Below, piece after piece: positions 4,856-22,649 of a stretch of DNA of 24,000 nt. A program made the translations under genes and the position numbers. Source of the stretch: Crenobacter cavernae. Lineage in GTDB: Bacteria; Pseudomonadota; Gammaproteobacteria; Burkholderiales; Chromobacteriaceae. The stretch lies in NCBI RefSeq assembly GCF_003355495.1, contig NZ_CP031337.1, positions 1,576,875 through 1,600,874 on the forward strand. The letters are read 5' to 3'. Below the pieces are notes generated by a model that made no database searches, was not told where the DNA came from, and saw nothing but the letters and a program-made list of their open reading frames with translations. Every line of letters begins with the position of its first letter. Position 1 is the first letter of the stretch.

Positions 4856-5321
4856 ATCGGCCGAGATCGGGCACGCGATAGCCAAGGAAACCTTCCTGCG
4901 CGAGGCGCCGAAGTTGCGCGAGGCCTTGCTCGACGCACAGTACGAGCTGAAGGAACGCGGCGACTTTCCGCTTCTCATCCTGATCCACGGCTTCGACGGC
5001 GCCGGCCGTGGCGAGACGATGAACCTGGTCAACGAGTGGCTCGATCCGCGGCTGATCCGCACCGTCGCCTTCGACGCGCCTGACGACGAGGAAAAGGCTC
5101 AGCCTTGGCTGTGGCACTTCTGGCGCCACGTGCCGGGGCGTGGCGGCATCACGCTGTTCGACAGGAGCGGGTACGGTCGCGTGCTGGTAGAGCGCGTCGA
5201 GGGGTGCACCGGCACCGACAAGGCGCCGTGGCACCTGATCGAAGCGAACAACAAGTACCACGCGCGCATCAAGGTTCTTGAAATCTTGTGCCGCGCGCTG
5301 GCCGCCAGGCTGGGGGGCTGA
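4848..5321 (+). CDS. PPK2-family (polyphosphate:AMP phosphotransferase-like) collapsed 157-aa ORF, possibly a gene relic
   Basis: The N-terminus MFESAEIGHAI...LLILIHGFDGAGRGETMNLVNEWLDPR is a PPK2/PAP-type Walker A region with GK changed to GR. AQPWLWHFWRHVPGRGGITLFDRSGYGRVLVERVEG is the PPK2 core. This is followed directly by the C-terminal APWHLIEANNKYHARIKVL motif, so the ~100-aa lid/Walker B module is absent. The ATG overlaps the recB stop by 8 nt (ATGTTTGA). The stop at 5319-5321 is 1 nt before the recD ATG. Confidence 0.6.
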   Translation: MFESAEIGHAIAKETFLREAPKLREALLDAQYELKERGDFPLLILIHGFDGAGRGETMNLVNEWLDPRLIRTVAFDAPDDEEKAQPWLWHFWRHVPGRGGITLFDRSGYGRVLVERVEGCTGTDKAPWHLIEANNKYHARIKVLEILCRALAARLGG

Positions 5322-5322
5322 G

Positions 5323-7026
5323 ATGCCGCACGACGACGCGCGCGCGCCGCAGCTTACGGCGCTGTTCAAGAGGCTGGACCCAGCGCTGCCCTGTGAGGTC
5401 GAAAGGCTGGTCGGGCGCCTGATCAACGCGAACGGCGCCGGCCACGTCTGCCTGCCGCTGTCGGGCGCGGAGGCGCGCTCGCTCGCCGGCACGTCCATCG
5501 TCGGCCGGGCCGGCGGCTACGCGCCGCTGATCGTCGACGCGCAGCGCCGGCTCTATTTCGCGCGCCACTGGTACGACGAGCACCGGCTGGCGGCGACGCT
5601 GGCGCGGCTCGCGCGCGAGGCGCTGCCGGTCGACGCGGCGGAGGCGCGGGGGCAGCTCGACGCGCTGTTCGGCGCCGATGCCGGATCGCGCCAGCGGCTG
5701 GCCGCCGCGCTGGCGTTGCGGCAGCGTTTCCTGCTGATCGCCGGCGGCCCCGGCACCGGCAAGACGACGACCGTCGTGCGGCTGCTGGCGCTGATCGCCG
5801 CGACCAGCGGGCGCCCGCCGGTGATCGCGATGGCGGCGCCGACCGGCAAGGCGGCGGCGCGGCTGTCCGAATCGGTGCGCGCCGCGCGCGACGCGCTGCC
5901 GGTGTCGGCAGCGGTGAAGGCATTGCTGCCCGAGCGCGCGCAGACCTTGCACCGGCTCTTGGGCCTCGCGCCCGGCGCCGCACGCGCGCGCCACCACAAG
6001 GGCGCGCCCTTGCCGCTCGACGTGCTGGTCGTCGACGAGGGATCGATGGTGGACCTCTCGATGATGGCGCGCGTCGCCGACGCGCTGCCTTCGAGCGCGC
6101 GGCTGATCGTGCTCGGCGACCCGGACCAGCTCGCATCGGTCGAGGCCGGCAGCGTGCTCGCCGACCTCGCCGTCGGCGAGGCGTGGCGGCCGGACACGGT
6201 GTCATGGTTGGCCGAGGCGGGTTGCGCGGCACCGCCCGAGAGCGGCGCCGCGGTGCTGCCCGACTGCGTGGTGCGGCTGACCGAAAGCCACCGCTTCGAC
6301 GCGAAAAGCGCGATCGGCCGGCTCGCGCGCGCGGTCAACGCCGGCGACGCCGCGGACGCCGAAGCGCTGCTCGACGACCCGGCCGAGCCCGACGCCGCGT
6401 GGCTTTTCGCGCCCGACGGCCTCGTCGCCGCCTTGTTCGCCGCGCGCGCCGGCTATTTCGAGCTGGTGAAAAAGGGCGCTGCGCCCGACGCGCTGTTCGC
6501 GGCGTTCTCGCGCCACATGCTGCTTTGCAGCGAACGCCGCGCGGTGGAAAACATGAACCGGGCGTTCGAGGCGAGGCTGGAAGCCGCGGGGCTGAAGACG
6601 GTAGGTGCCGACTGGTATCCGGGCCGCGCGGTGATGGTCACCGTCAACGACTACGCGGTCGGCCTGTTCAACGGCGACGTCGGCATCCTGGTCGAGACCT
6701 TGTCCGAGAACGGCCCGGTGCGGCGCGTGCTGTTCCCCGAGCCCGACGGCGGCTTTCGCGCGCTCGCGCCGGGGCGCCTGCCGGCGCACGAGACGGTGTT
6801 CGCGATGACGGTGCACAAGAGCCAGGGTTCGGAATTCGACGAGGTGTGGCTCGCGCTGCTCGGCGAGGGCTCGGCGTCGCGCGCGCTCGTCTATACCGCG
6901 ATCACGCGCGCGCGCCGCCGTTTCGCGCTCGCCGCGACGCCGGCCCAACTGGCTTCGGCGTTGGCTTGTGGCGCGTCGCGCGCGAGCGGACTGGCCGATC
7001 AGCTGGCCGCGCAGGCGGACGGCTGA
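5323..7026 (+). CDS. recD: Exodeoxyribonuclease V alpha subunit RecD
   Basis: Walker A LLIAGGPGTGKTTTV, Walker B LVVDEGSMVD, LVLGDPDQLASVEAGSV, and C-terminal TVHKSQGSEFD...YTAITRAR. Start ATG 5323 (MPHDDARAPQL) lies just after the upstream stop. The track start at 5278 would overlap the preceding ORF. Confidence 0.93.
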   Translation: MPHDDARAPQLTALFKRLDPALPCEVERLVGRLINANGAGHVCLPLSGAEARSLAGTSIVGRAGGYAPLIVDAQRRLYFARHWYDEHRLAATLARLAREALPVDAAEARGQLDALFGADAGSRQRLAAALALRQRFLLIAGGPGTGKTTTVVRLLALIAATSGRPPVIAMAAPTGKAAARLSESVRAARDALPVSAAVKALLPERAQTLHRLLGLAPGAARARHHKGAPLPLDVLVVDEGSMVDLSMMARVADALPSSARLIVLGDPDQLASVEAGSVLADLAVGEAWRPDTVSWLAEAGCAAPPESGAAVLPDCVVRLTESHRFDAKSAIGRLARAVNAGDAADAEALLDDPAEPDAAWLFAPDGLVAALFAARAGYFELVKKGAAPDALFAAFSRHMLLCSERRAVENMNRAFEARLEAAGLKTVGADWYPGRAVMVTVNDYAVGLFNGDVGILVETLSENGPVRRVLFPEPDGGFRALAPGRLPAHETVFAMTVHKSQGSEFDEVWLALLGEGSASRALVYTAITRARRRFALAATPAQLASALACGASRASGLADQLAAQADG

Positions 7027-8317: not shown

Positions 8318-8545
8318 ATGTCCATGTACCGTGTGAAGTTGATCTCGCCCGTGTTCGGCGTGGACGACGCCGGCCCGCTGCATCCGGGCGTCTCAGAGGC
8401 GCGCCGGGCCGCACACCTGATGCTGGCGCTGTACCAGGGTCGCGTGCGCGCCGAGATCCACCGGGTGATCGACCTGAGGCTCAAGCAGAGCGAGTGCGTC
8501 GAGGTGATCGGGCCTTGGCCGCAGGCCGGCCCGCCGCCCGCGTGA
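8318..8545 (+). CDS. Hypothetical small protein (75 aa)
   Basis: GGAG at 8306-8309 lies 8 nt upstream of the ATG. Codons show a strong GC3 bias like the host genes. No recognisable motif. Confidence 0.4.
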   Translation: MSMYRVKLISPVFGVDDAGPLHPGVSEARRAAHLMLALYQGRVRAEIHRVIDLRLKQSECVEVIGPWPQAGPPPA

Positions 8546-8929
8546 GTCTCGCCGTTCCCCGCAACGGGGAGCGGGTCCTACGTGATGCGGAGCGGTCGCC
8601 CGGATCGCCATCAGACCATGCTCGGTCGGCAATGCGCCGCCGAGTTTCTCGATATTGACGCCGGCCGGCGCATCCCTTTGCAGAAGGCGTTCGGGCCGCG
8701 GCCTCAATAACAGCCGTTCTGAATATCCGGTGCGCGCAAGATGCCATATCTCCCGCTGTTTTCGCCGCCATTCAATTGGAGCTCCTGACCGAATCGAGCC
8801 CGTTTTCAGGGACTCTGGCGCGGCGATTCGGCCACGCAAGCCGGCGACGGCTTTTTGTATCGGAATGTGACGGGACGCGCGTGAAAGAATCGGGCCTTGC
8901 CGGAGGAAAATCGGGGAGGGGAGGGAAGC

Positions 8930-8976
8930 TGGCGCACCCGACAGGGATCGAACCTGTGACATTCAGTTTCGGAAAC
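8930..8976 (-). repeat. att site: orphan copy of the 3' 47 nt of tRNA-Arg(CCG), from CCA end to anticodon loop
   Basis: TGGCGCACCCGACAGGGATCGAACCTGTGAC[A]TTCAGTTTCGGAAAC matches 19409-19455 apart from A8961 vs C19440. Sequence beyond 8976 lacks a D-arm and a 5' acceptor strand, so it is not a functional tRNA. Confidence 0.9.
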
Positions 8977-9095: not shown

Positions 9096-9131
9096 TTTCC
9101 GGTTTTGTCGGGGCGTGTGTCGGGGCGTGAG
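9096..9131 (+). repeat. Island-end repeat containing tandem 12-mers TGTCGGGGCGTG x2, a putative integrase arm-type site (left arm)
   Basis: TTTCCGGT[T]TTGTCGGGGCGTGTGTCGGGGCGTGAG matches 19321-19356 at 35/36 positions in the same orientation. The 12-mers lie at 9106-9117 and 9118-9129. The repeat ends 2 nt before the integrase ATG. Confidence 0.6.
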
Positions 9132-9133
9132 AG

Positions 9134-10675
9134 ATGGCAAGGGCTGAGTCAAAGCTGACGATCAAGAAGCTGGCAACACTAAAGCCACGCGATAAGGGCG
9201 AGGTGCTGCGTGATGGCGGCGGGCTGGTGGGTATCGTCGGCGTTGCCAAGGACGGGGAAACCGTCACCGTGCGGTTTACCTATCAGTACCGCGACGGCGT
9301 GCGTCGCCGGGAAAAATCCTGTGGCGTCTGGACGCACGATGACCGCCGCGACAAAGTGCCGGGTAGCAAGGGACTAGCTGAGATTCGCACCGAGCGCGAC
9401 CGGCTGAGAGCCCTCGTGAAGGCCGGCATTGATCCGATCCAGCAAGAGGAACAGGAGAGGGAGCGCCAAGAGCAAGAGTTGGCCGAGCGGCAACGCGCCT
9501 TAGTGAAACAGAAAGAGGCCGAACGCCGTGAAGGCGAGGCCATGACGATGGACGGGCTGTACGAGTTATGGGATGCCAACCACGGCGCGACGCTGGAACC
9601 GCACTGGCGGGCGGTGCGCCGATCTCACTGGCGTTGCCATGTCTCCCCGGTGATCGGTGCGCATAAGGTGCACCACGCTGACAAGCAACCTATGCTGCTG
9701 CACTACGACAGGATGGTGCGCAAAGGGAAGGAAGTCACGGCGCGGCGCGTGCTTGCGTTGCTGAAGCAGGTAATCGCGTGGGGTGTGGAACGTCAGCATG
9801 TGGCCGACGACCACCCACTGACTCGCCTGACCATTCCCAAGAAGCAGCGCACCGTTAGGGCCGACCAGCTCCCCGAAAACTTCGACATTCAGCAGTATCT
9901 GAACGCCCGCGGGGACGAAGCGGTCGGCTCCGACCTGGAAGACTCGCTCGCCGGCCGCGCCTTGCCGTTTGCCGAACTGGTGACGCTGTTCAACGACCGC
10001 CTGCCCAAGGCCACCCAAGCCATCACCGGAACACACCTGATGCGGCTGATGCTCGCCACCGGCATTCGCTCGAGCGAGGCAGTACGCCTGCGCTGGCAAT
10101 GGATCGACCTGGACCGGCGCTTAATGATTATTCCGGCCGGCAGCATGAAGAAGCGCAAGATGCACCACATCCACTTGTCCTCCTTTGCGGTGCGCCAGCT
10201 CGAGGAAATGCGGGCGATCCGGACGGGGGATTTCGTGTTTCCGGCTCCGCGTAAAGAGAACGACCACATCCTGCGCACTAACGTCGGCAACGACATCAGC
10301 AGCCGCCAGTTTTACCGCGCGGCAGACGAGTCAGACGAAGCCTTCGCTGCTCGTCTGGCAAAGCGCATGGTGTGCCGGCGGTCCCGTAAGGACTACGACC
10401 TCTATAACCTTCCTGGTGGCAAGTGGACGCTGTACGACCTGCGCCGCACCGTTGCCACGCGCCTGGAGGAGCTGGGCATCGAGCGCGATATGGTGGGTCG
10501 CGTGCTGGCCCATGCCCAGCCCGATGCCAAGACGACTGGACGCTACGCCCGCCATAGTCATTGGGAGCAACGTTGCAAGGCACTCGACCTGCTGGGTGTG
10601 GCGTTGGACATGTGCGAAGCCGGCGAGCTGCCGCTGATCGAGGTTGATAACGTGGTGCGGATGCGTCGCGCCTGA
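9134..10675 (+). CDS. int: Tyrosine-type site-specific integrase (P4-like, N-terminal DUF4102 arm-binding domain)
   Basis: N-terminus KLTIKKLATLKPRDKGEVLRDGGGLVGIVGVAKDGETVTVRFTYQYR is DUF4102-like. Catalytic region has LATGIRSSEAVRLRW (Arg I), LYDLRRTVATRL (box II, Tyr in place of the usual His), VLAHA and GRYARH (nucleophile Tyr). Lies adjacent to the att repeat. Confidence 0.92.
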   Translation: MARAESKLTIKKLATLKPRDKGEVLRDGGGLVGIVGVAKDGETVTVRFTYQYRDGVRRREKSCGVWTHDDRRDKVPGSKGLAEIRTERDRLRALVKAGIDPIQQEEQERERQEQELAERQRALVKQKEAERREGEAMTMDGLYELWDANHGATLEPHWRAVRRSHWRCHVSPVIGAHKVHHADKQPMLLHYDRMVRKGKEVTARRVLALLKQVIAWGVERQHVADDHPLTRLTIPKKQRTVRADQLPENFDIQQYLNARGDEAVGSDLEDSLAGRALPFAELVTLFNDRLPKATQAITGTHLMRLMLATGIRSSEAVRLRWQWIDLDRRLMIIPAGSMKKRKMHHIHLSSFAVRQLEEMRAIRTGDFVFPAPRKENDHILRTNVGNDISSRQFYRAADESDEAFAARLAKRMVCRRSRKDYDLYNLPGGKWTLYDLRRTVATRLEELGIERDMVGRVLAHAQPDAKTTGRYARHSHWEQRCKALDLLGVALDMCEAGELPLIEVDNVVRMRRA

Positions 10676-10758
10676 TTTACACCAGCTTTGCCGCGCCTAG
10701 ATCGGCCAATCGAAAAGCGGGAATCCCTGCCCGCCTGGCGCGGCAATCCATTTCAGAG

Positions 10759-11541
10759 ATGCGCGAGGGAGCGCAAGTACAAATGAACTTTCCTTCATGG
10801 GCGCCAGAAATACTGGTGCATGAATGTCGCCGGAACCCGCACCCCACGCTCAAGACTCTTCTGACCGAGGCTGCCCTTGAACAGTTTTGGGAAAAGGTCG
10901 ATGAACTACTGAGCAAAGCCAGTACCGCCTTTCCTGATGGCATTCCAGCGACTGCAGCACAGGTCGCAGCCAGACAGCTACTTGATGGCGGCCATCCCCT
11001 GCTTACCTACTGGAACGCCATTCGTAGAGCCCAGCAATACGAACCGATGGGGCATACCAAGAACGACAGAAAAGATCATCTGAACGAAGTTAAAAACCTT
11101 GCCTGGCGCTTGTCCCAAAAGCTCGACCGCTCCGAGTACTTCAGCACCGGGAAATTTCGAGATGCAGCGATCTGGATAGAGGCAGCAGCACCGACGATCG
11201 ATGATGACAAGGTAAAAAACTACTACCTGAACCTGGCCGACGGCTTATCAAAAATGACCCTCGACGGAACGATGGCTCGCCTTGCCGACATCATCGCCTA
11301 CATCGATCTTGCCTCGTTGGCCTCCCCTATCGTTGCTAGGCAGAAGGACATTGAGAAGGCACGGCTGATCAAGTTCTGCCGCCAAATGGTTGAGGCCCAC
11401 CGGCACCATCTGTTCGGGCCAACCTCGCCTCGTCATGATCTGATTGCTGACCTAGCCAAAGCACTCGACATCGTCCCTCAAGACTACGACCGGGACGGTT
11501 TTGGGATGCAGGAGGTCAAGTCCATGACAAGAGGGGTGTAG
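10759..11541 (+). CDS. Hypothetical protein (island cargo)
   Basis: Long ORF in a visibly lower-GC segment. An alternative start, ATG 10783 (MNFPSW), has GAGGGA ~12 nt upstream. No recognisable motif. Confidence 0.55.
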   Translation: MREGAQVQMNFPSWAPEILVHECRRNPHPTLKTLLTEAALEQFWEKVDELLSKASTAFPDGIPATAAQVAARQLLDGGHPLLTYWNAIRRAQQYEPMGHTKNDRKDHLNEVKNLAWRLSQKLDRSEYFSTGKFRDAAIWIEAAAPTIDDDKVKNYYLNLADGLSKMTLDGTMARLADIIAYIDLASLASPIVARQKDIEKARLIKFCRQMVEAHRHHLFGPTSPRHDLIADLAKALDIVPQDYDRDGFGMQEVKSMTRGV

Positions 11542-11889: not shown

Positions 11890-12267
11890 ATGGAAAAGAA
11901 AAACGCCCGCCCCGCCGAAGCGGAAACGAGCGCTCACATCAGCGCGAATCAGAGCACCGCCACGCCGCCGATCGTGACCGGACAATGCGCCGAGGTGCTC
12001 GCCATCCTGCGCGAGCGCGGCTCGGTGCTGAGCCTCGAACTGACCGCCGATCGCGCCATTCCCGAGGCCGCCGCGCGCATCCATGAGCTGCGCGCCATGG
12101 GCTTCAACATCATCACCACCCTCCTGGCCGAAGTCGTATTCCGGGATCGCGTGCGCCGCAAAGTAGCGCGCTACACGCTCGGCACGCCGGCATGGTCGGC
12201 ACTCGATTACGGCAAGAACGGCACGCTCATGAGCGACCAGGCGGTCGCGCGCTGCCCGCCCGGCTAG
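11890..12267 (+). CDS. Winged helix-turn-helix protein (HTH_39-like)
   Basis: CAEVLAILRERGSVLSLELTADRAIPEAAARIHELRAMGFNIIT matches the PF14090-type pattern as recalled from memory. The same CTAAAGGGGAC ribosome-binding context precedes both this gene and alpA. Confidence 0.65.
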   Translation: MEKKNARPAEAETSAHISANQSTATPPIVTGQCAEVLAILRERGSVLSLELTADRAIPEAAARIHELRAMGFNIITTLLAEVVFRDRVRRKVARYTLGTPAWSALDYGKNGTLMSDQAVARCPPG

Positions 12268-12369
12268 ACCGCTAACCCTCTCCCCGACAATTTGAGCGAG
12301 GCGTGAGGACGTGACCACGAACGGTGAACAACCGGTCGCGGCCACCCTCATGCTTGGAGGATTGTCACC

Positions 12370-13644
12370 ATGGCAAGAATCGAGCCGCAAACCGTCCGCC
12401 GCGAAGCCTTGGTTATATACGCGGAAACTGAGGCCGCTCCCGCAAATCACCACCCTGTGGTCTGGGCCAAACTGCCCGACGACAGCGGCGAAACGCTCGC
12501 TCTCGAACGGCACGGCACCGGCTTCCGCCTCTACGTCAGCCCGCAGGAATCCCGCGCCGAACGCTACGCACTCAAGGCGCTGGTGGCGCGCTGGATGCCG
12601 CGTTCTCGCACGGCCAAGTGTCTGCGCTGGAAGCTGCCGAACCGCCAGCTTGAGCTGATGCGCTCGACCGAGCATGCCAAGGCGTTCTACGCCGGCCTCC
12701 AGGTCTGTGCCATGCCCTGGCTGTGCCCGGTGTGCTCCGCCAAGATTGCCGAACGTCGTAAGGCCGAGCTGCAGGCGGCGATGGCGACGGCGAAGGCCAG
12801 AGGCTGGCAGGTGCTGCTGCTGACGCTGACCGTGCCGCACGGCATGGGCGACGATCTGAACGTGATGCTCGATCAGATGCGCCAGGCGTGGCGCTACTGC
12901 TCCACCAGTCGGGCCGGCAAGGCGATGCGTAAGGCGATCGGTTTGATGGGGACGGTGCGCGCGCTCGAAGTCACCTACGGTCAGAACGGCTTTCACCCGC
13001 ACTTCCACGTCCTGCTGTTCCTGGACAAGTCCAAGACGCCGCACGAGGTCGCGCAGTCCTTCGCGCCGATCTGGCAGCGCGCTTGCCTGAAAGCGGGGTT
13101 GGAGCGTCCGAGCGATGAGCACGGCTGCCGGGTTGACGACGGCAGCAGGGCGGCCGATTACGTAGCCAAGGGCGGGTTGGATTCGCACTGGGGTTTCGAG
13201 GACGAGGTCACGAAAGGACACAGCAAGAAGGGCCGTAGAGGCTCGCTGACGCCGTTCGACTTCCTGCGCGCCTACCGCGAGACCGGCGACGACAAGTTCC
13301 GCCGCCTGTTCCTGGTCTACGCCGACGCGTTTAGCGGTCAGCGCCAACTCTACTGGTCGAACGGCCTTAAGGCGCTGCTGGCGGTCGAGGATCTGACCGA
13401 CGAGGAAGTGGCTACTCAAGAGGACGACGCGGATATTGTCCTGGCGCAGCTCACTAGCGACGACTGGAAGGCCGTCGTGGACACGCACAGCGAGGCTGCC
13501 TTGCTCAATGTGGCCGAGACGCACCCGGACGCGCTGGAGGCGTTCCTAGACGGCGTGAGGGCCATTGCCAGGGCCTGTCGGGGCAGCGGCACCCGTCGCC
13601 GGCTGGCGTTCCCGCTGCGCCTGGCCGGCGAGCGCGAAGGCTAG
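12370..13644 (+). CDS. HUH-type rolling-circle replication initiator (Rep_1/pUB110-like)
   Basis: Zinc-ribbon-like CAMPWLCPVCSAKIAERRK. LLLTLTVPHG. HUH motif GFHPHFHVLLFLD. Candidate catalytic Tyr in AADYVAKGG. GGAGGA lies 8 nt upstream of the ATG. The C-terminal ~25 aa look non-native (see the adjacent pseudogene). Confidence 0.8.
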   Translation: MARIEPQTVRREALVIYAETEAAPANHHPVVWAKLPDDSGETLALERHGTGFRLYVSPQESRAERYALKALVARWMPRSRTAKCLRWKLPNRQLELMRSTEHAKAFYAGLQVCAMPWLCPVCSAKIAERRKAELQAAMATAKARGWQVLLLTLTVPHGMGDDLNVMLDQMRQAWRYCSTSRAGKAMRKAIGLMGTVRALEVTYGQNGFHPHFHVLLFLDKSKTPHEVAQSFAPIWQRACLKAGLERPSDEHGCRVDDGSRAADYVAKGGLDSHWGFEDEVTKGHSKKGRRGSLTPFDFLRAYRETGDDKFRRLFLVYADAFSGQRQLYWSNGLKALLAVEDLTDEEVATQEDDADIVLAQLTSDDWKAVVDTHSEAALLNVAETHPDALEAFLDGVRAIARACRGSGTRRRLAFPLRLAGEREG

Positions 13645-13659
13645 GCGCTGCTGCGCGAC

Positions 13660-14676
13660 ATGGGACTGGCGGCAACCACCCAGCGCGGCCTTCAGGACAA
13701 GCTCGCCAAGTACCACCTGCAAGAGGAAGGCAGCGACGCGATGCACCACGTCACCGCGCGCGGGCTGCTGGACGCATGGCGCGTACATCCTGCCGAGCGG
13801 CGACATCCTGGGCACACCGAGCGAGCCGATTTTCTACCGGGGCGACATCAAGGACGCGAACGCCTACGCGCCGCGCGGCACGCTCGACGGCTGGCGCGAC
13901 CACGTGGCGCGGCTGGCGCATCGGTGTGGGGCCATCACGAGCAAACCAAACTTGCCTGGGACGCTACCGCGCTGGGGCTGGCGAACGCCGCCGCCGCGCG
14001 CAATGACTGCCTGATGTTTCTGGACGAGGCGGGACAGGGCAGCCCGGACGCCGTCAGCTTATTGGCCTACCGGCTGTTCAACGGCACCGGCAAGATGCAG
14101 GGGGCCAAGGACGGCGGCAACCGCGAACAGGCGCGCTGGCGCGTGCTGGCGTTCTCGACCGGCGAGCACCCGGTCGGCGAGCTGCTGAAAGAGGGTGGCC
14201 GCCGCATCAAGGTAGGGCAAAGCGTGCGCTTGCCCAGCATCGCCGCCGACGCCGGCCGGGACTACGGCGTATTCGAGACGCTGCACGGCTACCCGTCCGC
14301 CAAGGCGCTGGCAGACGACCTCAAGCGCCTATGCGGCGAGCACTACGGTACGGCGGGGCGGGCATTCGTCGAGTACGTCGCCCCGCGCCGGGAGGAGCTG
14401 GCCGACCTGATCCGGGAGCACACCGGGGCATGGTGCGCCGATCTGCCACCGTCGAGCGGGCAGGCCGCCCGCGTCGTGACCCGCTTCGCCGTGGTGGCGC
14501 TGGCGCTGGAGTTGGCGACGCGCGCCGGCATCACCGGATGGGCGGAAGGCGAGGCGCGCGAGGCGATCCACGCCCTGATGCGCGAATGGCTGCAGCGCAA
14601 CGGCACCGGCAAGCACGAAGACCGCGCCATCGTTGACCAGGCGGAGGTCTTCCTCGCCCTGCACGGTTTCAGCCGC
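13660..14676 (+). pseudogene. DUF927-family (P4 alpha-like SF3) helicase, decayed: N-terminally truncated, two frameshifts, Walker A region deleted, 3' truncated
   Basis: Family-like sequence switches frame. Frame 1 reads LLRDMGLAATTQRGLQDKLAKYHLQ..HHVTAR. Frame 2 reads GCWTHGAYILPSGDILGTPSEPIFYRGDIKDANAYAPRGTLDGWRDHVARLA. Frame 1 resumes with SVWGHHEQTKLAWDATALGLANAAAARNDCLMFLDEAGQ...LALHGFSR. The P-loop segment expected between ARLA and SVWG is missing. The reading frame is the same as Rep, separated from it by a single TAG (13642-13644). Confidence 0.75.
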
Positions 14677-14807
14677 TCATCAAACAGCGTTTCCCACTGG
14701 TTCTTGCTCCAGGTGTATTCGCGCTGGTAACGAGGGATCGCGTAGACCACGTCCGCTTCGATGTCGAAGAGCTGCGAGACCGGGTAGTTGTTGACCGACT
14801 TGATCAT
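14677..14807 (-). pseudogene. DUF262 (GmrSD/ParB-like NTPase N-domain) protein, 44-codon N-terminal stub
   Basis: MIKSVNNYPVSQLFDIEADVVYAIPRYQREYTWSKNQWETLFDE carries the diagnostic IPxYQRxYxW motif. Homology stops abruptly at ~14676, where antisense DUF927 sequence begins. The ATG overlaps the stop of the upstream gene (ATGA). Confidence 0.7.
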
Positions 14808-15769
14808 AGGGACTCAATCACCTCAGCCGTTTGGCGGTAGTCGGCCAGGTAGCTGTCGAACGAAAAATCAGGGCTCTTGATGGCCGAAATGAAGTCGTCC
14901 ATCCAGCTGCCCGCCTTCTGCTGCAGGCCATGCATGCTGGCCTCCGGCGCGATCACCCCCGCTGGGCGCGACGCGTAGCCCGTCAGGACGTTCAGCGCGG
15001 CATAACCGTGGTGTCCCATCTCCGAGAAGTACGCCTGGGTCAGGCTCTTGGCCTGCTCGCGCAGCGCCAGCAGCTCGTCAACGCGCCTTTGCTTCTTGAC
15101 CACATCTTTGGTCGTCTTGATGTCAAAGACGCGGCAAAGCAGTGGCAGCATCTCCTTCTCTGGCACGTGGTAGCGCTTGAGCTGGTGCAGCTTCTCGGTC
15201 AGTGCCGTTTCCAGCTTGCGGATGTCGCCGATGTTCTGCACGAACCGATCAACCCGGTCCATGCCGCGCCGGGTGTGTGCGTAGCTGAATTCGATACTCT
15301 TGCTACCAAAGATGATGCCGTTCAAGCATATCCAGCGGCAGAAGCCCAACTCGAAGCGCAGCAGCCGGGTGCGGTTGTAGCTGTTGCTGATGCGCAGGAA
15401 TGCGGTCCACTTATCCTTCTCCCAGGGCGAGAATTCCGCTGTCTTGTGGATCAAATCGATATGGCAGAACGACCGGGTCTTGGGCATGGTGATGTTCAAG
15501 CACTCCATGTCGCCGATCTCCGTGGTGAGGAACACCTTCTTCATCACCTTAGCCGCCATGTCGAAGGCCGTCTTGTTGGTGACAAGCTTGTAGTCATCGG
15601 TCACCACGGCAAAGGGGTTCTGCCGCTCCACGTCGACCACGGCGAAGTGCCTTTTGAGCTGCTGGTAATCATTCAGCGCATTCTTGGCTGGCATGTAAAG
15701 CTGCCGCAGCTCGACCGGGAAAAACGCTTCAGCAGGGTCTCTGGCCGTCCAGGCTTGTGCGGTCGTCAT
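14804..15769 (-). CDS. Hypothetical protein, DUF932-like (phage/plasmid-like protein family)
   Basis: Start MTTAQAW at 15769 has AGGAA upstream. The core LRISNSYNRTRLLRFELGFCRWICLNGIIFG resembles the DUF932 NSxDxS...G..R.vC.NG signature as recalled from memory. Lower GC than the host. Translationally coupled to the DUF262 stub. Confidence 0.7.
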   Translation of the reverse strand: MTTAQAWTARDPAEAFFPVELRQLYMPAKNALNDYQQLKRHFAVVDVERQNPFAVVTDDYKLVTNKTAFDMAAKVMKKVFLTTEIGDMECLNITMPKTRSFCHIDLIHKTAEFSPWEKDKWTAFLRISNSYNRTRLLRFELGFCRWICLNGIIFGSKSIEFSYAHTRRGMDRVDRFVQNIGDIRKLETALTEKLHQLKRYHVPEKEMLPLLCRVFDIKTTKDVVKKQRRVDELLALREQAKSLTQAYFSEMGHHGYAALNVLTGYASRPAGVIAPEASMHGLQQKAGSWMDDFISAIKSPDFSFDSYLADYRQTAEVIESL

Positions 15770-15951
15770 GGTCTTATTCCTTTCCCTGTTTGGCGCGAGC
15801 TGCACGCTTCTCGGCCAGGCTCAAGTGATGATCGTTGATGCGGTCGCCGACGTCACATCCCGGACAATCATATAAGTAAACGCCTTTGGAAACTGGCCAT
15901 CGCCCGGGAAGGTATGGGCTTGCTTCTGCAAGCCCTACAACAGCAAAAACG

Positions 15952-16180
15952 ATGATCGTCAAATTACACAAACAAGCTCGAACGACGCCGGCCATCCGCG
16001 AGGAAATCCGCCACGCGACTGGCACCTTGGCCGAACTGACGGCACGCTTCAACGTCAGCATTTCCACCATTCTCAAGTGGAAGAGCCGCGACGCCGTTGA
16101 AGACCGTTCTCACACGGCGCATCGGCTGCAAACCACGCTGACGCCTGCCCAGGAACGCATCGCAGTCGAACTACGCAAGA
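15952..16180 (+). pseudogene. IS481-family transposase, N-terminal HTH fragment (~76 codons)
   Basis: MIVKLHKQARTTPAIREEIRHATGTLAELTARFNVSISTILKWKSRDAVEDRSHTAHRLQTTLTPAQERIAVELRK resembles IS481 N-termini (HKNARLTP...). No DDE catalytic domain follows. The ORF tail to 16299 is unrelated sequence. Confidence 0.6.
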
Positions 16181-16548
16181 TACTCAGAAATAGCTGGTGG
16201 CGTTGGTTTACCACCCAGGCAGTAGGCAGATCGCAAAGCACCTGTATGACGCCAAAGGCCCTAACTAATATTAACCAGCCAAGCCGGCTAAGGCAGTGAC
16301 TTTCCGTGACCTAGACATCAAGAGGGCATGTTGACCTTGCTCTGAGAGGCGCGTGTTCAATAGTGGAATTTGACGGAACAGGTGCGCTTCGCCTACCTGT
16401 CCGGCGCGCGCGGCGTCAACAGCAACTACATTCTGCCGACCGACTGGAGCGGCCACGCCGGCAACGCGCTCGAAGCGCCGGATTCCGACCACATCCTGTA
16501 CGGCGGCGCGGCGACCAGCAAGGCGTCGCTGGCGGCTGTTATCTGATT

Positions 16549-16565
16549 GTCAACTACCCCGGCCT
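16549..16565 (+). repeat. Upstream copy of the 17-nt direct repeat GTCAACTACCCCGGCCT (second copy at 16611-16627)
   Basis: Exact 17/17 identity, 62 bp apart. See findings for the associated hairpins. Confidence 0.9.
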
Positions 16566-16610
16566 GAAGGAATGAGAGGCGCAAATATGCAATTCCGCCC
16601 CTCTTGTATA

Positions 16611-16891
16611 GTCAACTACCCCGGCCTTCAGGCCGGAGCTTGCTGAAAGTCGAGCTGGGTTGACCAGGGAGAGCGGTTCACGCCGCTACGTTTGCAACAG
16701 GTCGTTGAGACCCACTTCGGGATGCTTCCTCAGTCCCGAACCCTGGAAGGACGGGATCATGCTGGCGAAAGGGAAAGCGCCGAAGGTTCTGTCCGCCGCG
16801 ACAGCGGGAGCCGGTTGCAGACATTCCCGAGGGGAGCGGTTCTTCGGAACCCGTTACCAGGCCCGTAAGGGCAACCACAGGAGAAATCGCC
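16611..16891 (+). ncRNA. Candidate IscB omega RNA (guide plus scaffold); 5' boundary uncertain
   Basis: About 280 nt of non-coding sequence immediately 5' of iscB, dense in hairpins: 16621-16636 (CCGGCC/GGCCGG), 16672-16687, 16734-16756 (TCCCG/CGGGA), 16789-16804 (CTGTC/GACAG), a UUCG tetraloop hairpin at 16838-16851, and a GUAA (GNRA) tetraloop hairpin at 16861-16872. A possible pseudoknot pairs CCAGGG 16664-16669 with CCCTGG 16741-16746. The position matches the known IscB locus layout. Confidence 0.55.
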
Positions 16892-18226
16892 ATGGCGGTT
16901 TTGGTACTCAACAAGCAGGGCAAGCCGCTGATGCCGTGCAGCGAAAAGCGAGCCAGGCTGCTTCTGGAGCGCGGTCGTGCCGTGGTACATCGGCAGATGC
17001 CGTTCACCATCCGGCTGAAACACCGGATCGACGGCGCAGTGCAACCGCTGCGGCTCAAGCTCGATCCCGGTAGTCGCATCACCGGACTGGCGCTGGTGCG
17101 CGAAGTGGAAACGGTCGATGTCGAGACTGGCGAGGTGCGGCGCGAAGCGCACCCGCTGCTGCTGGCGGAGTTGCAGCAGCGCGGTGCCAGCATCCGCGAC
17201 GCACTGACCCAGCGGGCCGCCTTTCGCCGGCGGCGCCGCAGTCAGCTGCGCTACCGCGCCGCGCGCTTCCTCAACCGCACCAGGCCGAAAGGCTGGCTGG
17301 CACCTTCGCTACGCCATCGCGTCGCTACCGCGCAGGCGTGGGTGACGCGGCTGCGCCGGCTCGCGCCGGTCACTGCCTTGAGCATGGAGTCGGTGCGCTT
17401 TGACATGCAGCAGCTGCTCAACCCGGAAATCTCCGGGGTCGAGTATCAGCAGGGCGCGTTGCTGGGCTATGAGGTGCGCGAGTACCTGCTGGAGAAGTGG
17501 GGCAGGCAGTGCGCCTACTGCGGCACGGGCAACGTACCGCTGCAAGTCGAGCACATCCAGCCCAAGGCCAAGGGCGGCAGCAATCGCGTCAGCAACCTGA
17601 CGCTGGCCTGTCGGCAATGCAACGAGAAAAAGGGCAAGCGCGACGTGCGCGACTTTCTGGCCCACGCCCCGCAGCGGCTGGCCAGGATTCTGGTGCAGGC
17701 CACGGCCCCGTTGCGCGACGCCGCCGCAGTGAACAGCACGCGCCGCGCCTTGTACCGGGTCTTGGCCGCCACTGGCCTGCCGGTCGAAGCCAGCAGCGGC
17801 GGCCGGACCAAGTACAACCGCCACCTTCACCACATTCCCAAGACGCACTGCCTCGATGCGTTGTGTGTCGGCCAGGTCGATGCTGTCGGCCGGTGGCAGC
17901 GCCCGGTACTGGCGATAAAAGCCTGTGGGCGCGGTAGCTACCAGCGCACCCTACTGGACAAGTACGGCTTCCCGCGCGGCTACCTGACCCGGCAGAAACG
18001 CCACTTCGGTTTCCAGACTGGCGATCGGGTGCGAGCCATCGTGCCGAGCGGCAAGAATGTCGGCACCCATGTGGGCCGGGTCGCCGTCAGAAGCAGAGGC
18101 AGCTTCAACATCCAGACCCCAGCAGGCGTTGTTCAAGACATCAGCCACCGCCACTGCTCGCTGATCCAGCGGGCCGACGGCTATGGCTACTGTCATCAAC
18201 CGGCCGTTCGAGAAAGGAATGCGTGA
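16892..18226 (+). CDS. iscB: IscB, an OMEGA-type RNA-guided DNA endonuclease (Cas9 ancestor; split RuvC with inserted HNH)
   Basis: PLMP domain (NKQGKPLMPCSEKRARLL). RuvC-I LKLDPGSRITGLAL. Arg-rich bridge helix AFRRRRRSQLRYRAARFLNR. RuvC-II SMESVRFD. HNH CAYCG..PLQVEHIQPKAKGGSNRVSNLTLACRQCNEKKG. RuvC-III KTHCLDALCVG. C-terminal TAM-interaction-like domain FGFQTGDRVRA...GRVAVRSRGSFNIQT. AGGAGA lies 7 nt upstream of the ATG. Confidence 0.92.
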   Translation: MAVLVLNKQGKPLMPCSEKRARLLLERGRAVVHRQMPFTIRLKHRIDGAVQPLRLKLDPGSRITGLALVREVETVDVETGEVRREAHPLLLAELQQRGASIRDALTQRAAFRRRRRSQLRYRAARFLNRTRPKGWLAPSLRHRVATAQAWVTRLRRLAPVTALSMESVRFDMQQLLNPEISGVEYQQGALLGYEVREYLLEKWGRQCAYCGTGNVPLQVEHIQPKAKGGSNRVSNLTLACRQCNEKKGKRDVRDFLAHAPQRLARILVQATAPLRDAAAVNSTRRALYRVLAATGLPVEASSGGRTKYNRHLHHIPKTHCLDALCVGQVDAVGRWQRPVLAIKACGRGSYQRTLLDKYGFPRGYLTRQKRHFGFQTGDRVRAIVPSGKNVGTHVGRVAVRSRGSFNIQTPAGVVQDISHRHCSLIQRADGYGYCHQPAVRERNA

Positions 18227-18246
18227 GCAGGCAACGGCCACCGCCT

Positions 18247-18294
18247 CGACGCCTGGGGCGTCGGCGCTCTACCTCCCCGCCATGAATGGCGGGG
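18247..18294 (+). repeat. Two hairpins just 3' of iscB, putative right-end subterminal structures
   Basis: CGACGCC-TGG-GGCGTCG (18247-18263) and CCCCGCC-ATGAAT-GGCGGGG (18275-18294), followed by TTT. Confidence 0.45.
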
Positions 18295-18451
18295 TTTCAC
18301 GCGCAGACTGATGATGTTCGATACCTCGGTGCCGATGCCGAGCAACATCAAGCTGCTGCGCGAGCACGCCGCCGTGCTGCTGCCCTATCTATCCGACGCC
18401 GAGGCGCGGCGCCAGCGAAGAAGCCGAACCGGTGAATGATTTGGAGACACT

Positions 18452-19138
18452 TTGAGCGAACAGAAAAGGCGCGACGCGTTCGAGGCATGGGCGAACGAGC
18501 ATATGGGGTTGCATGGGCTCGACCGGTGCGCGCTCGGCGGTTATCTGGACAACGCCGTCCACGACGCATGGTGCGCGTGGGCCGCCGCGCTCGCCACGCT
18601 GGCTGACCGGCGCAGCGACGAGGTCGAGCCGCCGACCGTGCCGGACTTCGAGACGCTGGTCTGCGAGCTGTACCAGGTGCTCGGCGCACTGGACGCGCCA
18701 CAGGCGGTGCTGGACCAGGTGTGGGCCGCGATCGAAGGCGAGCCGTTGCCGCATGCGACGCGGCTGCCGTTCGAGGCGCCGGTGGTCGAGCCCGACGCCG
18801 CGCTGATCGCCGCCGCCGACAACGCGCTGCGCTTCATCGCGGCTACGCACGGCGTCGCCGGCGAACCGCCGGTCGCCGGGATCGCACTGACGGCCTACGC
18901 GCTCGCCGGTGCGCTGGCGAAGTACAAGACGGTGGAAGGACGGGAAGCGGACCGGCGCATGGCCGAGCAGATTGCCGACTCCATCACGCCCGCGCCGCGT
19001 CAGGTGAAGTACGCCGACTGGCGGCGCGAGCACGCCGCGCGCGTAGCGGCCGAGGCGAGATTGGCCGAGGTGGCGCGCGAGCAGGCGGCCGCAAAGCGTG
19101 AAGCGAGCAACATCGCCATGCAGCCGCCGGCCGAGTAG
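18452..19138 (+). CDS. Hypothetical protein (228 aa, island-borne, high GC)
   Basis: TTG start with GGAGA 4 nt upstream; an alternative ATG lies at codon 18. Good GC3 bias. Ala/Glu-rich C-terminal helix. No recognisable motif. Confidence 0.55.
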   Translation: MSEQKRRDAFEAWANEHMGLHGLDRCALGGYLDNAVHDAWCAWAAALATLADRRSDEVEPPTVPDFETLVCELYQVLGALDAPQAVLDQVWAAIEGEPLPHATRLPFEAPVVEPDAALIAAADNALRFIAATHGVAGEPPVAGIALTAYALAGALAKYKTVEGREADRRMAEQIADSITPAPRQVKYADWRREHAARVAAEARLAEVAREQAAAKREASNIAMQPPAE

Positions 19139-19320
19139 AGCCGCGTGAAATAGCCGGCGCCATAGAACTTTTTGGCATAACTGGCGCTAACCGGCCGGCG
19201 GGACACTCCGCCGGCTACGAGGTGCTCAGAGAGAGGTGCGCTTCATTGATTCGAACCAGATCCAGTGAGGGGGCGGGCGAGAGCAAAGGCCCACCTTAAG
19301 GCCGTCTGGTAAACGATCAA

Positions 19321-19356
19321 TTTCCGGTCTTGTCGGGGCGTGTGTCGGGGCGTGAG
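19321..19356 (+). repeat. Island-end repeat containing tandem 12-mers TGTCGGGGCGTG x2, a putative integrase arm-type site (right arm)
   Basis: Matches 9096-9131 at 35/36 positions. The 12-mers lie at 19331-19342 and 19343-19354, ~55 nt from the tRNA 3' end. Confidence 0.6.
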
Positions 19357-19366
19357 GCCCTGAGAC

Positions 19367-19400
19367 GGAAAAGGGCTTGCGTTCATGTACGCAAGCCCTT
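19367..19400 (-). terminator. Rho-independent terminator of tRNA-Arg, encoded on the island side of the att core
   Basis: 11-bp perfect stem AAGGGCTTGCG (19371-19381) / CGCAAGCCCTT (19390-19400). On the minus strand it is followed by TTTTCC. Lies 8 nt downstream of the tRNA CCA end. Confidence 0.55.
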
Positions 19401-19408
19401 GAATTTGT

Positions 19409-19485
19409 TGGCGCACCCGACAGGGATCGAACCTGTGACCTTCAGTTTCGGAAACTGACACTCTATCCAACTGAGCTACGGATGC
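19409..19485 (-). tRNA. tRNA-Arg (anticodon CCG), 77 nt with encoded CCA
   Basis: The reverse complement folds by hand as GCATCCG-TA-GCTC-AGTTGGATA-GAGT-G-TCAGT-TTCCGAA-ACTGA-AGGTC-ACAGG-TTCGATC-CCTGT-CGGGTGC-G-CCA. All four stems pair (two G-U pairs). The anticodon loop reads UU-CCG-AA. Confidence 0.95.
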
Positions 19486-20467: not shown

Positions 20468-22486
20468 TCAGCCCGTCTCACCCTTGCCCTTCAGCGCGTC
20501 GAGCGACGACAGCAGCGACGACAGCTTCGCGCGGCCCTCGCTCTTGGACACGATGGGCTCGGCGCCGGGACGGCCGAACAGGCGCACGTCGTCGGCGCCG
20601 ATCTCGGCGATGAAGCGCGACGGGTCGACGAACTGCCATTCGCCGGCGCGCTTCCTCTTCACGCAGTGGGTCAGCGTCAGCGAGCGTTGCGCGCGCGTGA
20701 TGCCGACGTACATCAGCCGTCGTTCCTCCTCGATCATGCCGTTGTCGACCGATTCGCTGTGCGGCAGGATGCCTTCCTCGCAGCCGACGAGGAAGACGTG
20801 CGGGTATTCGAGGCCCTTGCTCGCGTGCAGCGTCGACATCTTCACCGCGTCGACCTCGCTCTCGTCGCGGCCTTCGAGCATGGTGATCAGCGCGATCGTC
20901 TGCGCCAGCTCGATCACGTTCTTGCCGTCGGCCTCGCCCTTCTTCGCGAGCCAGCCGACCAGCTCCTGCACGTTCTTCCACTTGCTCTCGGCGGCGCGCG
21001 GGCTGTCTTCGGAGTCGAGCAGCCACGTCTCGTAGCCGATGTATTTCAGCAGCTCCTGCACCAGTTCGCCCGCCGGTTCGCGCCGCGCGCGCGATTCGAG
21101 GTTGACGATCAGCCGGCAGAAGTCGTCGAGCGCCTCGTGCTGCGCTATCTGGATCTGCCCGCGGAAGCCTTCCTCGGTCGCGGCGGCGAACAGGCTCTTC
21201 TGGCGCTGCCCGGCGTAGGCGCCGAGCTTTTCCAGCGAGACGTTGCCGACGCCGCGCTTCGGCGTCGTCAAGGAGCGGATGAAGGCCGGGTCGTCATCGG
21301 GGTTGGTGATTAGCCTTAGGTAGGACAGCACGTCCTTGATCTCGGCCTTGTCAAAGAAGCTCTGCCCGCCCGACATCTGGTAGGGGATCTTGTTGTTGCG
21401 CAGCACCTGCTCGAAGATGCGTGCCTGGTAGTTGCCGCGGTAGAGGATCGCGTAGTCGGCGAAGCGCGTGCGGCTTTCGAACTTGTGCGCCAGGAGGCGC
21501 TGCACGACGATTTCGGCCTCGTGCTCCTCGTCCTTGCACTGCACGACGTGGATCGGTTCGCCTAAGCCCAGCTCGCTCCACAGCTTCTTCTCGAACAGCT
21601 TAGGGTTGTTGCCGATCACCGAGTTGGCGGCGCGCAGGATGCGTGCGGTCGAGCGGTAGTTCTGTTCGAGCTTGATGATCTTGAGGCGGGGGAAGTCGAC
21701 CTGCAACAGCCGCAGGTTCTCGATGTTCGCGCCGCGCCACGCGTAGATCGACTGGTCGTCGTCGCCGACGGCGGTGAACATGCCGCGCACGCCGGCCAGC
21801 AGTTTTACCATCTGGTACTGGCAGGTGTTGGTGTCCTGGTACTCGTCGATCAGCAGGTAACGCAGCTTGCCCTGCCACTTGGACAGCACCGCGTCGTCGC
21901 TGCGGAAGAGTTGCACCGGCAGGCGGATCAGGTCGTCGAAGTCGACCGCCTGGTAGGCGAGCAAAGTGTCCTGGTACGACAGGTAGGCACGCGCGCACAC
22001 CTGTTCGAACGCGTTCTCGGCTTCGGTCAGGCAGGTCTCGGGCGCGCGAAAGTCGTTCTTCCACAGCGAGATCTGCGTCTGCACCTTGCGGATCTCGTCC
22101 TTGCTCGTGGTCTGGATCAGGTCGGCGACGATCTTGCCGGCGTCGTAGGCGTCGAGGATGGAAAACTGCGGCTTGTAACCGAGGTGGGCCGCTTCCTGGC
22201 GCAGGATCTGCATGCCGAGCGAGTGGAAGGTCGAGACGGTCAGGCCGCGCAGCTCGGACGCGGGCAACAGCTTGCCGACGCGTTCCATCATCTCGCGCGC
22301 CGCCTTGTTGGTGAAGGTGATCGCGGCGATGTTGCGCGCGTTCATGCCGCCTTCGCGGATCAGATGGGCGATCTTCTGCGTGATGACGCGCGTCTTGCCG
22401 CTGCCGGCGCCGGCCAGCACCAAGAGCGGGCCGTCGAGATACTGGATCGCCGCGCGCTGCGGGGGGTTGAGTTGCGGCAGGGACAT
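20468..22486 (-). CDS. rep: ATP-dependent DNA helicase Rep (UvrD/Rep SF1)
   Basis: MSLPQLNPPQRAAIQYLDGPLLVLAGAGSGKTRVITQKIAHLI, AITFTNKAAREM, YLLIDEYQDTN, GDDDQSIYAWRGA, LEQNYRS, and LSTLHASKGLEYPHVFLVG...YVGITRA are collinear with E. coli Rep as recalled from memory. The alternative start ATG 22507 adds 7 codons. The track start at 22606 is unlikely. Confidence 0.93.
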   Translation of the reverse strand: MSLPQLNPPQRAAIQYLDGPLLVLAGAGSGKTRVITQKIAHLIREGGMNARNIAAITFTNKAAREMMERVGKLLPASELRGLTVSTFHSLGMQILRQEAAHLGYKPQFSILDAYDAGKIVADLIQTTSKDEIRKVQTQISLWKNDFRAPETCLTEAENAFEQVCARAYLSYQDTLLAYQAVDFDDLIRLPVQLFRSDDAVLSKWQGKLRYLLIDEYQDTNTCQYQMVKLLAGVRGMFTAVGDDDQSIYAWRGANIENLRLLQVDFPRLKIIKLEQNYRSTARILRAANSVIGNNPKLFEKKLWSELGLGEPIHVVQCKDEEHEAEIVVQRLLAHKFESRTRFADYAILYRGNYQARIFEQVLRNNKIPYQMSGGQSFFDKAEIKDVLSYLRLITNPDDDPAFIRSLTTPKRGVGNVSLEKLGAYAGQRQKSLFAAATEEGFRGQIQIAQHEALDDFCRLIVNLESRARREPAGELVQELLKYIGYETWLLDSEDSPRAAESKWKNVQELVGWLAKKGEADGKNVIELAQTIALITMLEGRDESEVDAVKMSTLHASKGLEYPHVFLVGCEEGILPHSESVDNGMIEEERRLMYVGITRAQRSLTLTHCVKRKRAGEWQFVDPSRFIAEIGADDVRLFGRPGAEPIVSKSEGRAKLSSLLSSLDALKGKGETG

Positions 22487-22649
22487 GGCGGTATCGTCAG
22501 GCGTCATTCGGGGGGAGCGTGCATTGTAACACCGTGGCCCGGCCGGCCCCGGGCGGACGCGTGCGAGCGTAATGACGGCCGGGTCGAGTATCATGGCCGA
22601 AAGCAAAGGCTATCGGACGCGCTTTGCCTTTCAGAGGAATCCAAACACT

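Follow-up and report, generated by a model that had tools for sequence, protein, structure and literature searches.

IscB nucleases and their omega-RNAs have been described, structurally solved and engineered since 2021, and IscB is the ancestor of Cas9. The structured RNA called HEARO has been present in Rfam for years. Here, we describe the anatomy of one IscB locus of Crenobacter cavernae, located in a stretch of 24,000 nucleotides of contig NZ_CP031337.1 (positions 1,576,875 to 1,600,874 of the forward strand). This whole stretch is referred to as the window, and its own numbering is used throughout. We consider it highly probable (about 0.9) that positions 16611–18310 of the window represent a 1.7-kb non-autonomous IS200/IS605-type element in the OMEGA class (obligate mobile element-guided activity), which encodes an IscB protein and its omega-RNA (HEARO). 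All the parts of this element discussed below, as well as its predicted guide and target-adjacent motif (TAM), are on the forward strand. An earlier reading of the bare sequence (the original prediction) had proposed an intact IscB with an omega-RNA upstream of it, and this interpretation is supported by the analysis.

HEARO is now recognized as the omega-RNA of IscB (Meers et al.). In the architecture described earlier, the right end of the transposon delimits the omega-RNA, the guide is external to the element and the TAM is directly adjacent to the left end (Meers et al.). Published guides are 16–17 nucleotides (nt) long and are located 5′ of the scaffold, beyond the transposon end (Meers et al.; PMC9640706). 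The GstIscB elements (ISGst, IS605 family; Meers et al.) have the same layout as the window element: an upstream omega-RNA bounded by the right end, an outside guide, a TAM at the left end and a non-autonomous makeup. However, the Geobacillus elements are multi-copy and have a cognate TnpA in the genome, whereas the element in the window is present as a single copy and no TnpA was found nearby. AwaIscB of Allochromatium warmingii, which belongs to a clade of ~440–470-residue proteobacterial IscBs, has both the domain order and a HEARO-type omega-RNA in common with the window IscB. The likeness is drawn through Allochromatium homologs and through the published TAM of AwaIscB, ATGA, which is the same as the boundary motif of the window element. 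The window IscB is 67–73% identical to many IscBs of Chromatiaceae, Acidithiobacillus and Thiomonas, including Allochromatium humboldtianum, and Allochromatium proteins are found among the homologs of 68–70% identity. Because of these Allochromatium homologs, the window protein can probably be placed in the experimentally validated clade. It differs from AwaIscB in being a separate, betaproteobacterial ortholog.

The open reading frame (ORF) at 16892–18226, which starts with ATG and codes for 444 residues, belongs to the IscB family, as established by the ORF call, profiles, alignment and the predicted fold. It matches the NCBIfam equivalog model NF040563 ('RNA-guided endonuclease IscB') over the entire profile (positions 1–314 of 314) with 433.6 bits against the cutoff of 175. 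Pfam maps RRXRR (PF14239) to residues 3–188 (E 9e-66), followed by HNH and HNH_5 at residues 207–255. Thus, comparison with profile hidden Markov models, both NF040563 and PF14239, agrees with the original assignment. The domains follow one another in the order typed out in that prediction, and all the motifs listed there are present: PLMP (residues 12–15), RuvC-I (DPGS, 58–61, with D58), the arginine-rich bridge helix (RRRRRS, 112–117), RuvC-II (ESVRFD, 166–171, with E166), HNH (CAYCG, 207–211; VEHIQPK, 219–225, with H221; CRQCNEKKG, 240–248), RuvC-III (HCLDALC, 319–325, with H319 and D322) and a C-terminal beta-rich domain (residues ~332–444). PLMP falls inside the PF14239 match and aligns with the PLMP of both OgeuIscB and TbaIscB. 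The bridge helix motif RRRRRSQLRYRAARF (residues 112–126) matches the same region of the solved IscBs in the alignment, and in the AlphaFold2 model this zone contains a helix at residues 98–118. The insertion of HNH between RuvC-II and RuvC-III is confirmed, H221 being the catalytic histidine.

The top sequence matches in PDB are TbaIscB (E 1.7e-42) and OgeuIscB. D58, E166, H221, H319 and D322 of the window protein align to D61, E193, H247, H340 and D343 of OgeuIscB (7xht numbering), the latter being its RuvC and HNH catalytic residues (Kato et al., PMC9640706). All five are intact, as had been claimed from the sequence. Among 27 homologs, D322 is invariant, and each of the other four residues is kept in at least 90% of the proteins. 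The AlphaFold2 model, built on the homolog set, has a predicted local distance difference test score (pLDDT) of 73.6. When it was used in a Foldseek search, the best matches were the solved IscB–omega-RNA–DNA complexes (8csz_D, E 7.7e-23), followed by IsrB, Cas9d-like proteins and Cas9. OgeuIscB with its omega-RNA (PDB 7xht, 7utn and 8csz) is thus the best fold match. It has PLMP, RuvC-I/II/III, the bridge helix and HNH in common with the window protein, the catalytic residues correspond one to one, and in both systems, as a prediction in the case of the window, the omega-RNA is pseudoknotted and has its guide at the 5′ end. Nevertheless, the similarity between the two proteins is moderate (phmmer E 1e-28 over residues 3–331; 18–21% identity in the Foldseek structural alignment). 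The window protein is ~50 residues shorter (444 versus 496), sequence alignment fails in the C-terminal WED/TI region, and the TAM of OgeuIscB is NWRRNA or NNRR as opposed to the predicted ATGA in the window.

Cas9 (type II CRISPR) also has RuvC split by HNH, a bridge helix and a 3′ target motif, all of which it shares with the window IscB. In contrast to Cas9, the 444-residue window protein has no REC lobe, and its RNA is one long omega-RNA rather than a CRISPR RNA paired with a trans-activating CRISPR RNA. Models of Cas9 score far below their cutoffs on the window IscB (14.5 versus 100 bits for TIGR01865 and 38.6 versus 375 for Cas9d), and these weak matches cover the HNH region. There is no CRISPR array in the window, and no Cas protein was detected among the ORFs scanned with Pfam. 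With the Cas9 profiles failing and the array absent from the window, identification of the protein as Cas9 was rejected.

The scaffold core of the omega-RNA, which doubles as the right end of the transposon, was identified with a covariance model as HEARO (Rfam RF02033) at 16611–16842 (232 nt). The match scores 113.3 bits against the gathering score of 83 (E 5e-23), spans all the model positions (1–211 of 211) and is not truncated. It is on the same strand as iscB and stops 49 nt short of the iscB ATG. The full-length match to RF02033 bears out the proposal that an omega-RNA precedes the gene. The upstream ~280 nt had also been described as non-coding, and indeed no protein family was detected in any reading frame of 16611–16891. 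HEARO matches are located directly upstream of iscB in every relative tested (L002, L009, L010 and L012–L014), and the omega-RNA bit scores of the relatives range from 93 to 120.

Covariation was analyzed in a MAFFT alignment of eight sequences, namely the window and seven related loci whose IscBs are ~65–80% identical to the window protein. The relatives were gathered by scanning a genome collection (L001–L003) and from contigs encoding homologs. The structure tested consisted of the Rfam consensus, the pseudoknot and two extra 3′ hairpins, 74 pairs altogether (65 from Rfam and nine added). Paired cells account for 82.3% of the total, and both partners have changed in 36 of the 74 pairs. In the shuffling control, none of 500 shuffles matched the observed values for any of the five measures, and sliding the pairing partners by one to three columns reduced the paired cells to 27–48%. 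In the window copy itself, 69 of the 74 modeled pairs are standard.

The pseudoknot of the omega-RNA, defined by the Rfam consensus together with covariation, is formed by 16667–16671 (5′ strand) and 16824–16828 (3′ strand). Three of its five pairs are compensatory and 90% of cells are paired. The original prediction had suggested a different long-range interaction, a 6-bp pairing of 16664–16669 with 16741–16746. The complementarity does exist in the window, but values as high as those observed occur in 150 to 341 of 500 shuffles, meaning no covariation. This pairing also collides with helix P1 and with the Rfam pseudoknot, and it was rejected. Other hairpins noted in the same prediction are present. 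Past the Rfam model, the RNA has a 3′ extension (16838–16872) that is conserved in all eight loci and shows compensatory changes. It includes the UUCG hairpin at 16838–16851 and the GNRA (GUAA) hairpin at 16861–16872, the latter with the invariant sequence CCCGUAAGGG. These additional hairpins agree with the report that the RF02033 model misses downstream elements (Meers et al.). Conservation in the eight loci continues unbroken to the iscB ATG. A Shine-Dalgarno-like GGAG can be read from the sequence at 16880–16883, 8 nt ahead of this ATG, and a purine-rich block occupies the same position in related loci.

That the RNA extends to the ribosome-binding site would also be expected under the pre-2021 view of HEARO, according to which the protein would be a stand-alone HNH homing endonuclease and the RNA a structured 5′ leader regulating it in cis. 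The Pfam HNH domains, too, match in line with this view, and homologs are named 'HNH endonuclease' or 'McrA' in UniRef and JGI. Against it, the HNH domain is flanked by a full split RuvC with intact D/E/H/D residues, the predicted fold matches the solved IscB–omega-RNA–DNA complexes, and relatives are experimentally RNA-guided, so that for the family this explanation has already been refuted. We assign it a negligible probability. As for the names, the original prediction expected routine pipelines to annotate the protein merely as HNH or RRXRR. The UniRef and JGI names of homologs go along with this expectation, but NCBI already lists a 100% identical protein as 'RNA-guided endonuclease IscB [Crenobacter cavernae]' (3.27-Mb contig). 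Looking up the exact protein in assemblies gave no entry.

The ends of the element rest on the comparison with relatives, which occupy unrelated sites in other genomes. In the upstream alignment of the eight loci, similarity starts abruptly at GTCAAC (16611), while the sequence 5′ of this point is unrelated between the loci. Downstream of the iscB stop codon, similarity lasts for ~85 nt, through two hairpins (18247–18263 and 18275–18294), to ...GGGGTTTCACGCGCAGACTG (...CAGACTG, 18310). Then comes ATGA, after which the sequences are again unrelated. The window element is bounded by GTCAACNNCCCC at its start and by ATGA past its end. The terminal non-coding segment 18227–18310, conserved in the eight loci, is what IS200/IS605 terminology calls the left end, as read on the opposite strand. 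The subterminal hairpins at the two ends, 16620–16638 (CCCCGGCCTTCAGGCCGGAG) and 18275–18294 (CCCCGCCATGAATGGCGGGG), are alike, as expected of IS200/IS605 ends.

The ATGA at 18311–18314 (TCAT on the other strand) represents the last four conserved nucleotides at the boundary and is the predicted TAM and TnpA target site. Where the boundary was located by motif search, it reads ATGA in six of seven loci and ATGG in the remaining one (L017). The boundary of L009 reads ATGA in the alignment, so that either ATGA or ATGG is found in all eight loci. The motif agrees with the published TAMs, both ATGA of AwaIscB and TTCAT of GstIscB (Meers et al.), the latter being ATGAA when read on the strand of iscB. 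Following the published architecture, the guide would correspond to the 16 nt immediately 5′ of the scaffold (16595–16610, CCGCCCCTCTTGTATA), which belong to the host flank outside the element, and the target would be the donor joint, that is, the guide followed by ATGA. The guide sequence occurs once in the window.

The likely mode of action can be outlined by homology to the IscBs characterized in the literature. Since the guide is external to the element, transcription would have to arrive from the flank upstream. The resulting RNA would consist of ~16 nt of the flank (16595–16610) and a scaffold of ~260 nt (16611 to ~16872) with the pseudoknot and several hairpins. IscB would bind this guide–scaffold RNA, and the ribonucleoprotein would recognize double-stranded DNA in which a match to the guide has ATGA on its 3′ side. 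This combination of guide and ATGA is the donor joint that would be left after excision of the element. HNH (H221) would cut the target strand and RuvC (D58, E166, H319 and D322) the other one, and repair of the break from a sister copy would restore the element. Mobility would require a Y1 TnpA acting in trans. For this particular locus, transcription, formation of the ribonucleoprotein, cleavage and present-day mobility are all inferred.

A six-frame Pfam scan of the element flanks within 15800–19400 revealed no Y1 TnpA (PF01797), and neither did the other large ORFs, through which the window beyond this range was checked. Since no Y1 transposase was found, we call the element non-autonomous. 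In the related loci, no Y1 transposase family is recorded for any called gene next to iscB. The solo state of the gene, pointed out in the original prediction, thus holds, yet it is the norm for iscB: only ~1.5% of iscB genes have tnpA nearby, leaving ~98.5% without it (Meers et al.).

Several observations weigh against the reading of 16611–18310 as a working IscB–omega-RNA element. First, the minimum-free-energy z-score of the omega-RNA is a modest −1.78; the evidence for structure comes from covariation and from the match to the Rfam model. Second, no sigma-70-like promoter was detected in a scan of 16200–18600. Synthesis of the omega-RNA would consequently rely on read-through from a flank of gene fragments, although the absence of such a site agrees with the published view that omega-RNA synthesis relies on transcription arriving from outside the element. 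Third, the family profile compared with PDB stops aligning to the solved IscBs at about residue 331, leaving the last 113 residues without sequence similarity, and a Foldseek search of the isolated C-terminal domain against PDB returned nothing reaching E 1e-3, i.e. the fold similarity is weak. Finally, the gene is single-copy (its protein cluster has one member on one contig of the genome record), and the empty site, sought as the reconstructed donor joint and also as the right flank alone, was not found in metagenome or viral collections. Given the single copy and the missing empty site, present mobility is putative.

As to the C-terminal domain, the beta-rich character claimed in the original prediction is evident in the AlphaFold2 model (pLDDT 84–92), and the domain modeled alone folds into a confident small beta-barrel. 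The weak Foldseek matches of the isolated domain include HfmIscB in the second and DtIsrB in the third place (E 0.03 and 0.07; root-mean-square deviation 3.0–3.5 Å over 63–67 columns). A TAM-interaction fold, the other half of that claim, is therefore plausible for the modeled domain but weakly supported.

The single copy, the lack of TnpA nearby and of a promoter-like site upstream, and the surroundings (an upstream flank that comprises a fragment of an IS481 transposase plus short ORFs, and an adjoining truncated relic of another copy) could alternatively mean that the element is a fossil. In that case it would be an intact-looking but immobile and unexpressed relic in a junk region of the island, with no omega-RNA made and IscB inactive. 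However, the 444-codon ORF is open with all the catalytic residues intact, the omega-RNA scores on par with those of relatives and retains standard pairs at 69 of 74 modeled positions, and the Shine-Dalgarno sequence is present. These features count against a fossil because one of them should by now have succumbed to neutral decay. We consider such a state improbable and favor the intact IscB–omega-RNA element.

The element is real but already known, and the IscB family has been well characterized, mechanism included. The main value of the analysis is the correct annotation and the exact anatomy of one copy, including the guide, the scaffold, the pseudoknot and both ends, with the ATGA TAM derived independently, from the boundaries. 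Such anatomy would permit direct reconstitution of a compact, 444-residue ortholog with predicted ATGA specificity from a GC-rich betaproteobacterium. In addition, the relic next to the element and a coincidence of element boundaries with start codons provide small leads on how such non-autonomous elements behave in genomes.

The relic (16549–16575, forward strand), found as a repeat match, is a solo copy of the element end, 22–23 nt long (GTCAACTACCCCGGCCTGAAGGA, 16549–16571), together with its own ATGA (16572–16575). Positions 16549–16565 are identical to 16611–16627 in all 17 nt, with 0.03 such matches expected by chance, and the wider match over 16546–16570 has 22 identical nucleotides out of 25. 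The relic begins 2 nt past the stop codon of ORF 16370–16546. Its positions 16559–16570 (12 nt) are perfectly complementary to 16625–16636 in the first hairpin of the omega-RNA (16620–16638). In local alignment, the 62 nt that separate the relic from the element gave no element sequence beyond the 17–22-nt match. With no further match, derivation of this spacer from the opposite end of the element was rejected. Before the element inserted, only 39 nt lay between the relic ATGA and the site of the present insertion. With the intact element taken out, the ATG at 16572 shares its reading frame with ORF 18311–18439, which gives a reconstructed ORF of 55 residues. The relic may have been left by an earlier copy at a neighboring TAM or by an aberrant excision.

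A pattern at the boundary motif is seen among the loci compared. The ATG of the boundary motif opens a downstream ORF (91–443 residues) in at least five of the eight loci (at position 522 in L001, 6389 in L012, 4421 in L015, 4412 in L016 and 4413 in L017), and in L012, L016 and L017 it is the start of the called downstream gene. Moreover, the upstream gene is co-oriented with iscB in five of the six relatives that have a called upstream gene. These elements are thus placed between genes of operons, right at a start codon. A speculative and, in our view, rather unlikely explanation is that elements of this clade land on, or persist at, the start codons of operons, where read-through from the host would make the omega-RNA and the downstream coding sequence would stay intact. 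The relic would then be either an earlier insertion or an aberrant footprint of TnpA excision. If this were true, it would indicate that the island was recently active even though no TnpA is found locally. Alternatively, the coincidence with start codons may reflect survivorship of harmless insertions.

The setting in a tRNA-Arg island, also part of the original prediction, was verified. The tRNA-Arg(CCG) gene, the sole tRNA gene in the window, was mapped by ARAGORN and the Rfam tRNA model to 19409–19485 on the reverse strand. Its 3′ half (19409–19455) constitutes the proximal attachment (att) repeat. The distal att repeat at 8930–8976 is a copy of this half, a 47-nt direct repeat with 98% identity. 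The two repeats bound a 10.5-kb island, which carries the IscB element. The island contents include a tyrosine integrase gene (9134–10675), int-alpA RNA, a winged-helix protein (HTH_39), Rep_1, DUF927 and DUF932.

Residence in an integrative element with integrase, Rep_1, DUF927 and DUF932 might suggest that IscB and its omega-RNA have been co-opted by the island, for its retention, for competition with mobile elements or for defense, instead of serving the small transposon. The phage-like neighborhood of relative L015, which includes YqaJ, RecT and SSB genes, would point in the same direction. However, the guide in the window is plain local flank, as for a passive insertion, and has no other match in the window. 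Furthermore, relatives reside in unrelated housekeeping operons (cbiG, gyrB, polysaccharide synthesis), which means no conserved association with islands. Co-option by the island is thus a very remote alternative to the small transposon that we propose.

The remaining observations concern the island itself and the surrounding sequence. Within 11890–14730 and 14804–15805, the island codes for HTH_39, Rep_1, a DUF927 protein that weakly matches a cassette-chromosome replicative helicase model, and DUF932. With this content, the island resembles a small integrative element of the replicative kind, or a satellite. No family was matched by the ORFs 10759–11541, 18452–19138 and 8393–8962 of the island area. 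The int-alpA RNA (Rfam RF02996) is located at 10690–10758 on the forward strand, between the integrase gene and ORF 10759–11541, and scores 65.3 bits against the gathering score of 35.8. A second direct repeat, 36 nt long and 97% identical, is found just within each end of the island (9096–9131 and 19321–19356). Each of its copies holds a tandem TGTCGGGGCGTG, and one copy stops 2 nt before the integrase start codon. In the circularized island, these 36-nt copies would lie to either side of the att core, as arm-type binding sites of integrases do.

ORF 15886–16299 (forward strand), just upstream of the IscB element, is a truncated IS481 fragment: its residues 46–100 match positions 13–74 of 284 in the IS481-family transposase model NF033577 (E 7.8e-7). 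In the related Sulfobacillus locus (L002), matches to group II intron RNA are present ~5 kb downstream, at 11073–11146 (reverse strand) and 12200–12319 (forward strand). Beyond the island, one chromosomal flank (500–7026) codes for a RecB-like protein of 1451 residues, with a UvrD helicase and a PD-(D/E)XK nuclease, and for a RecD-like helicase, while the opposite flank (20468–22606) codes for a di-haem cytochrome c and a UvrD/Rep helicase.

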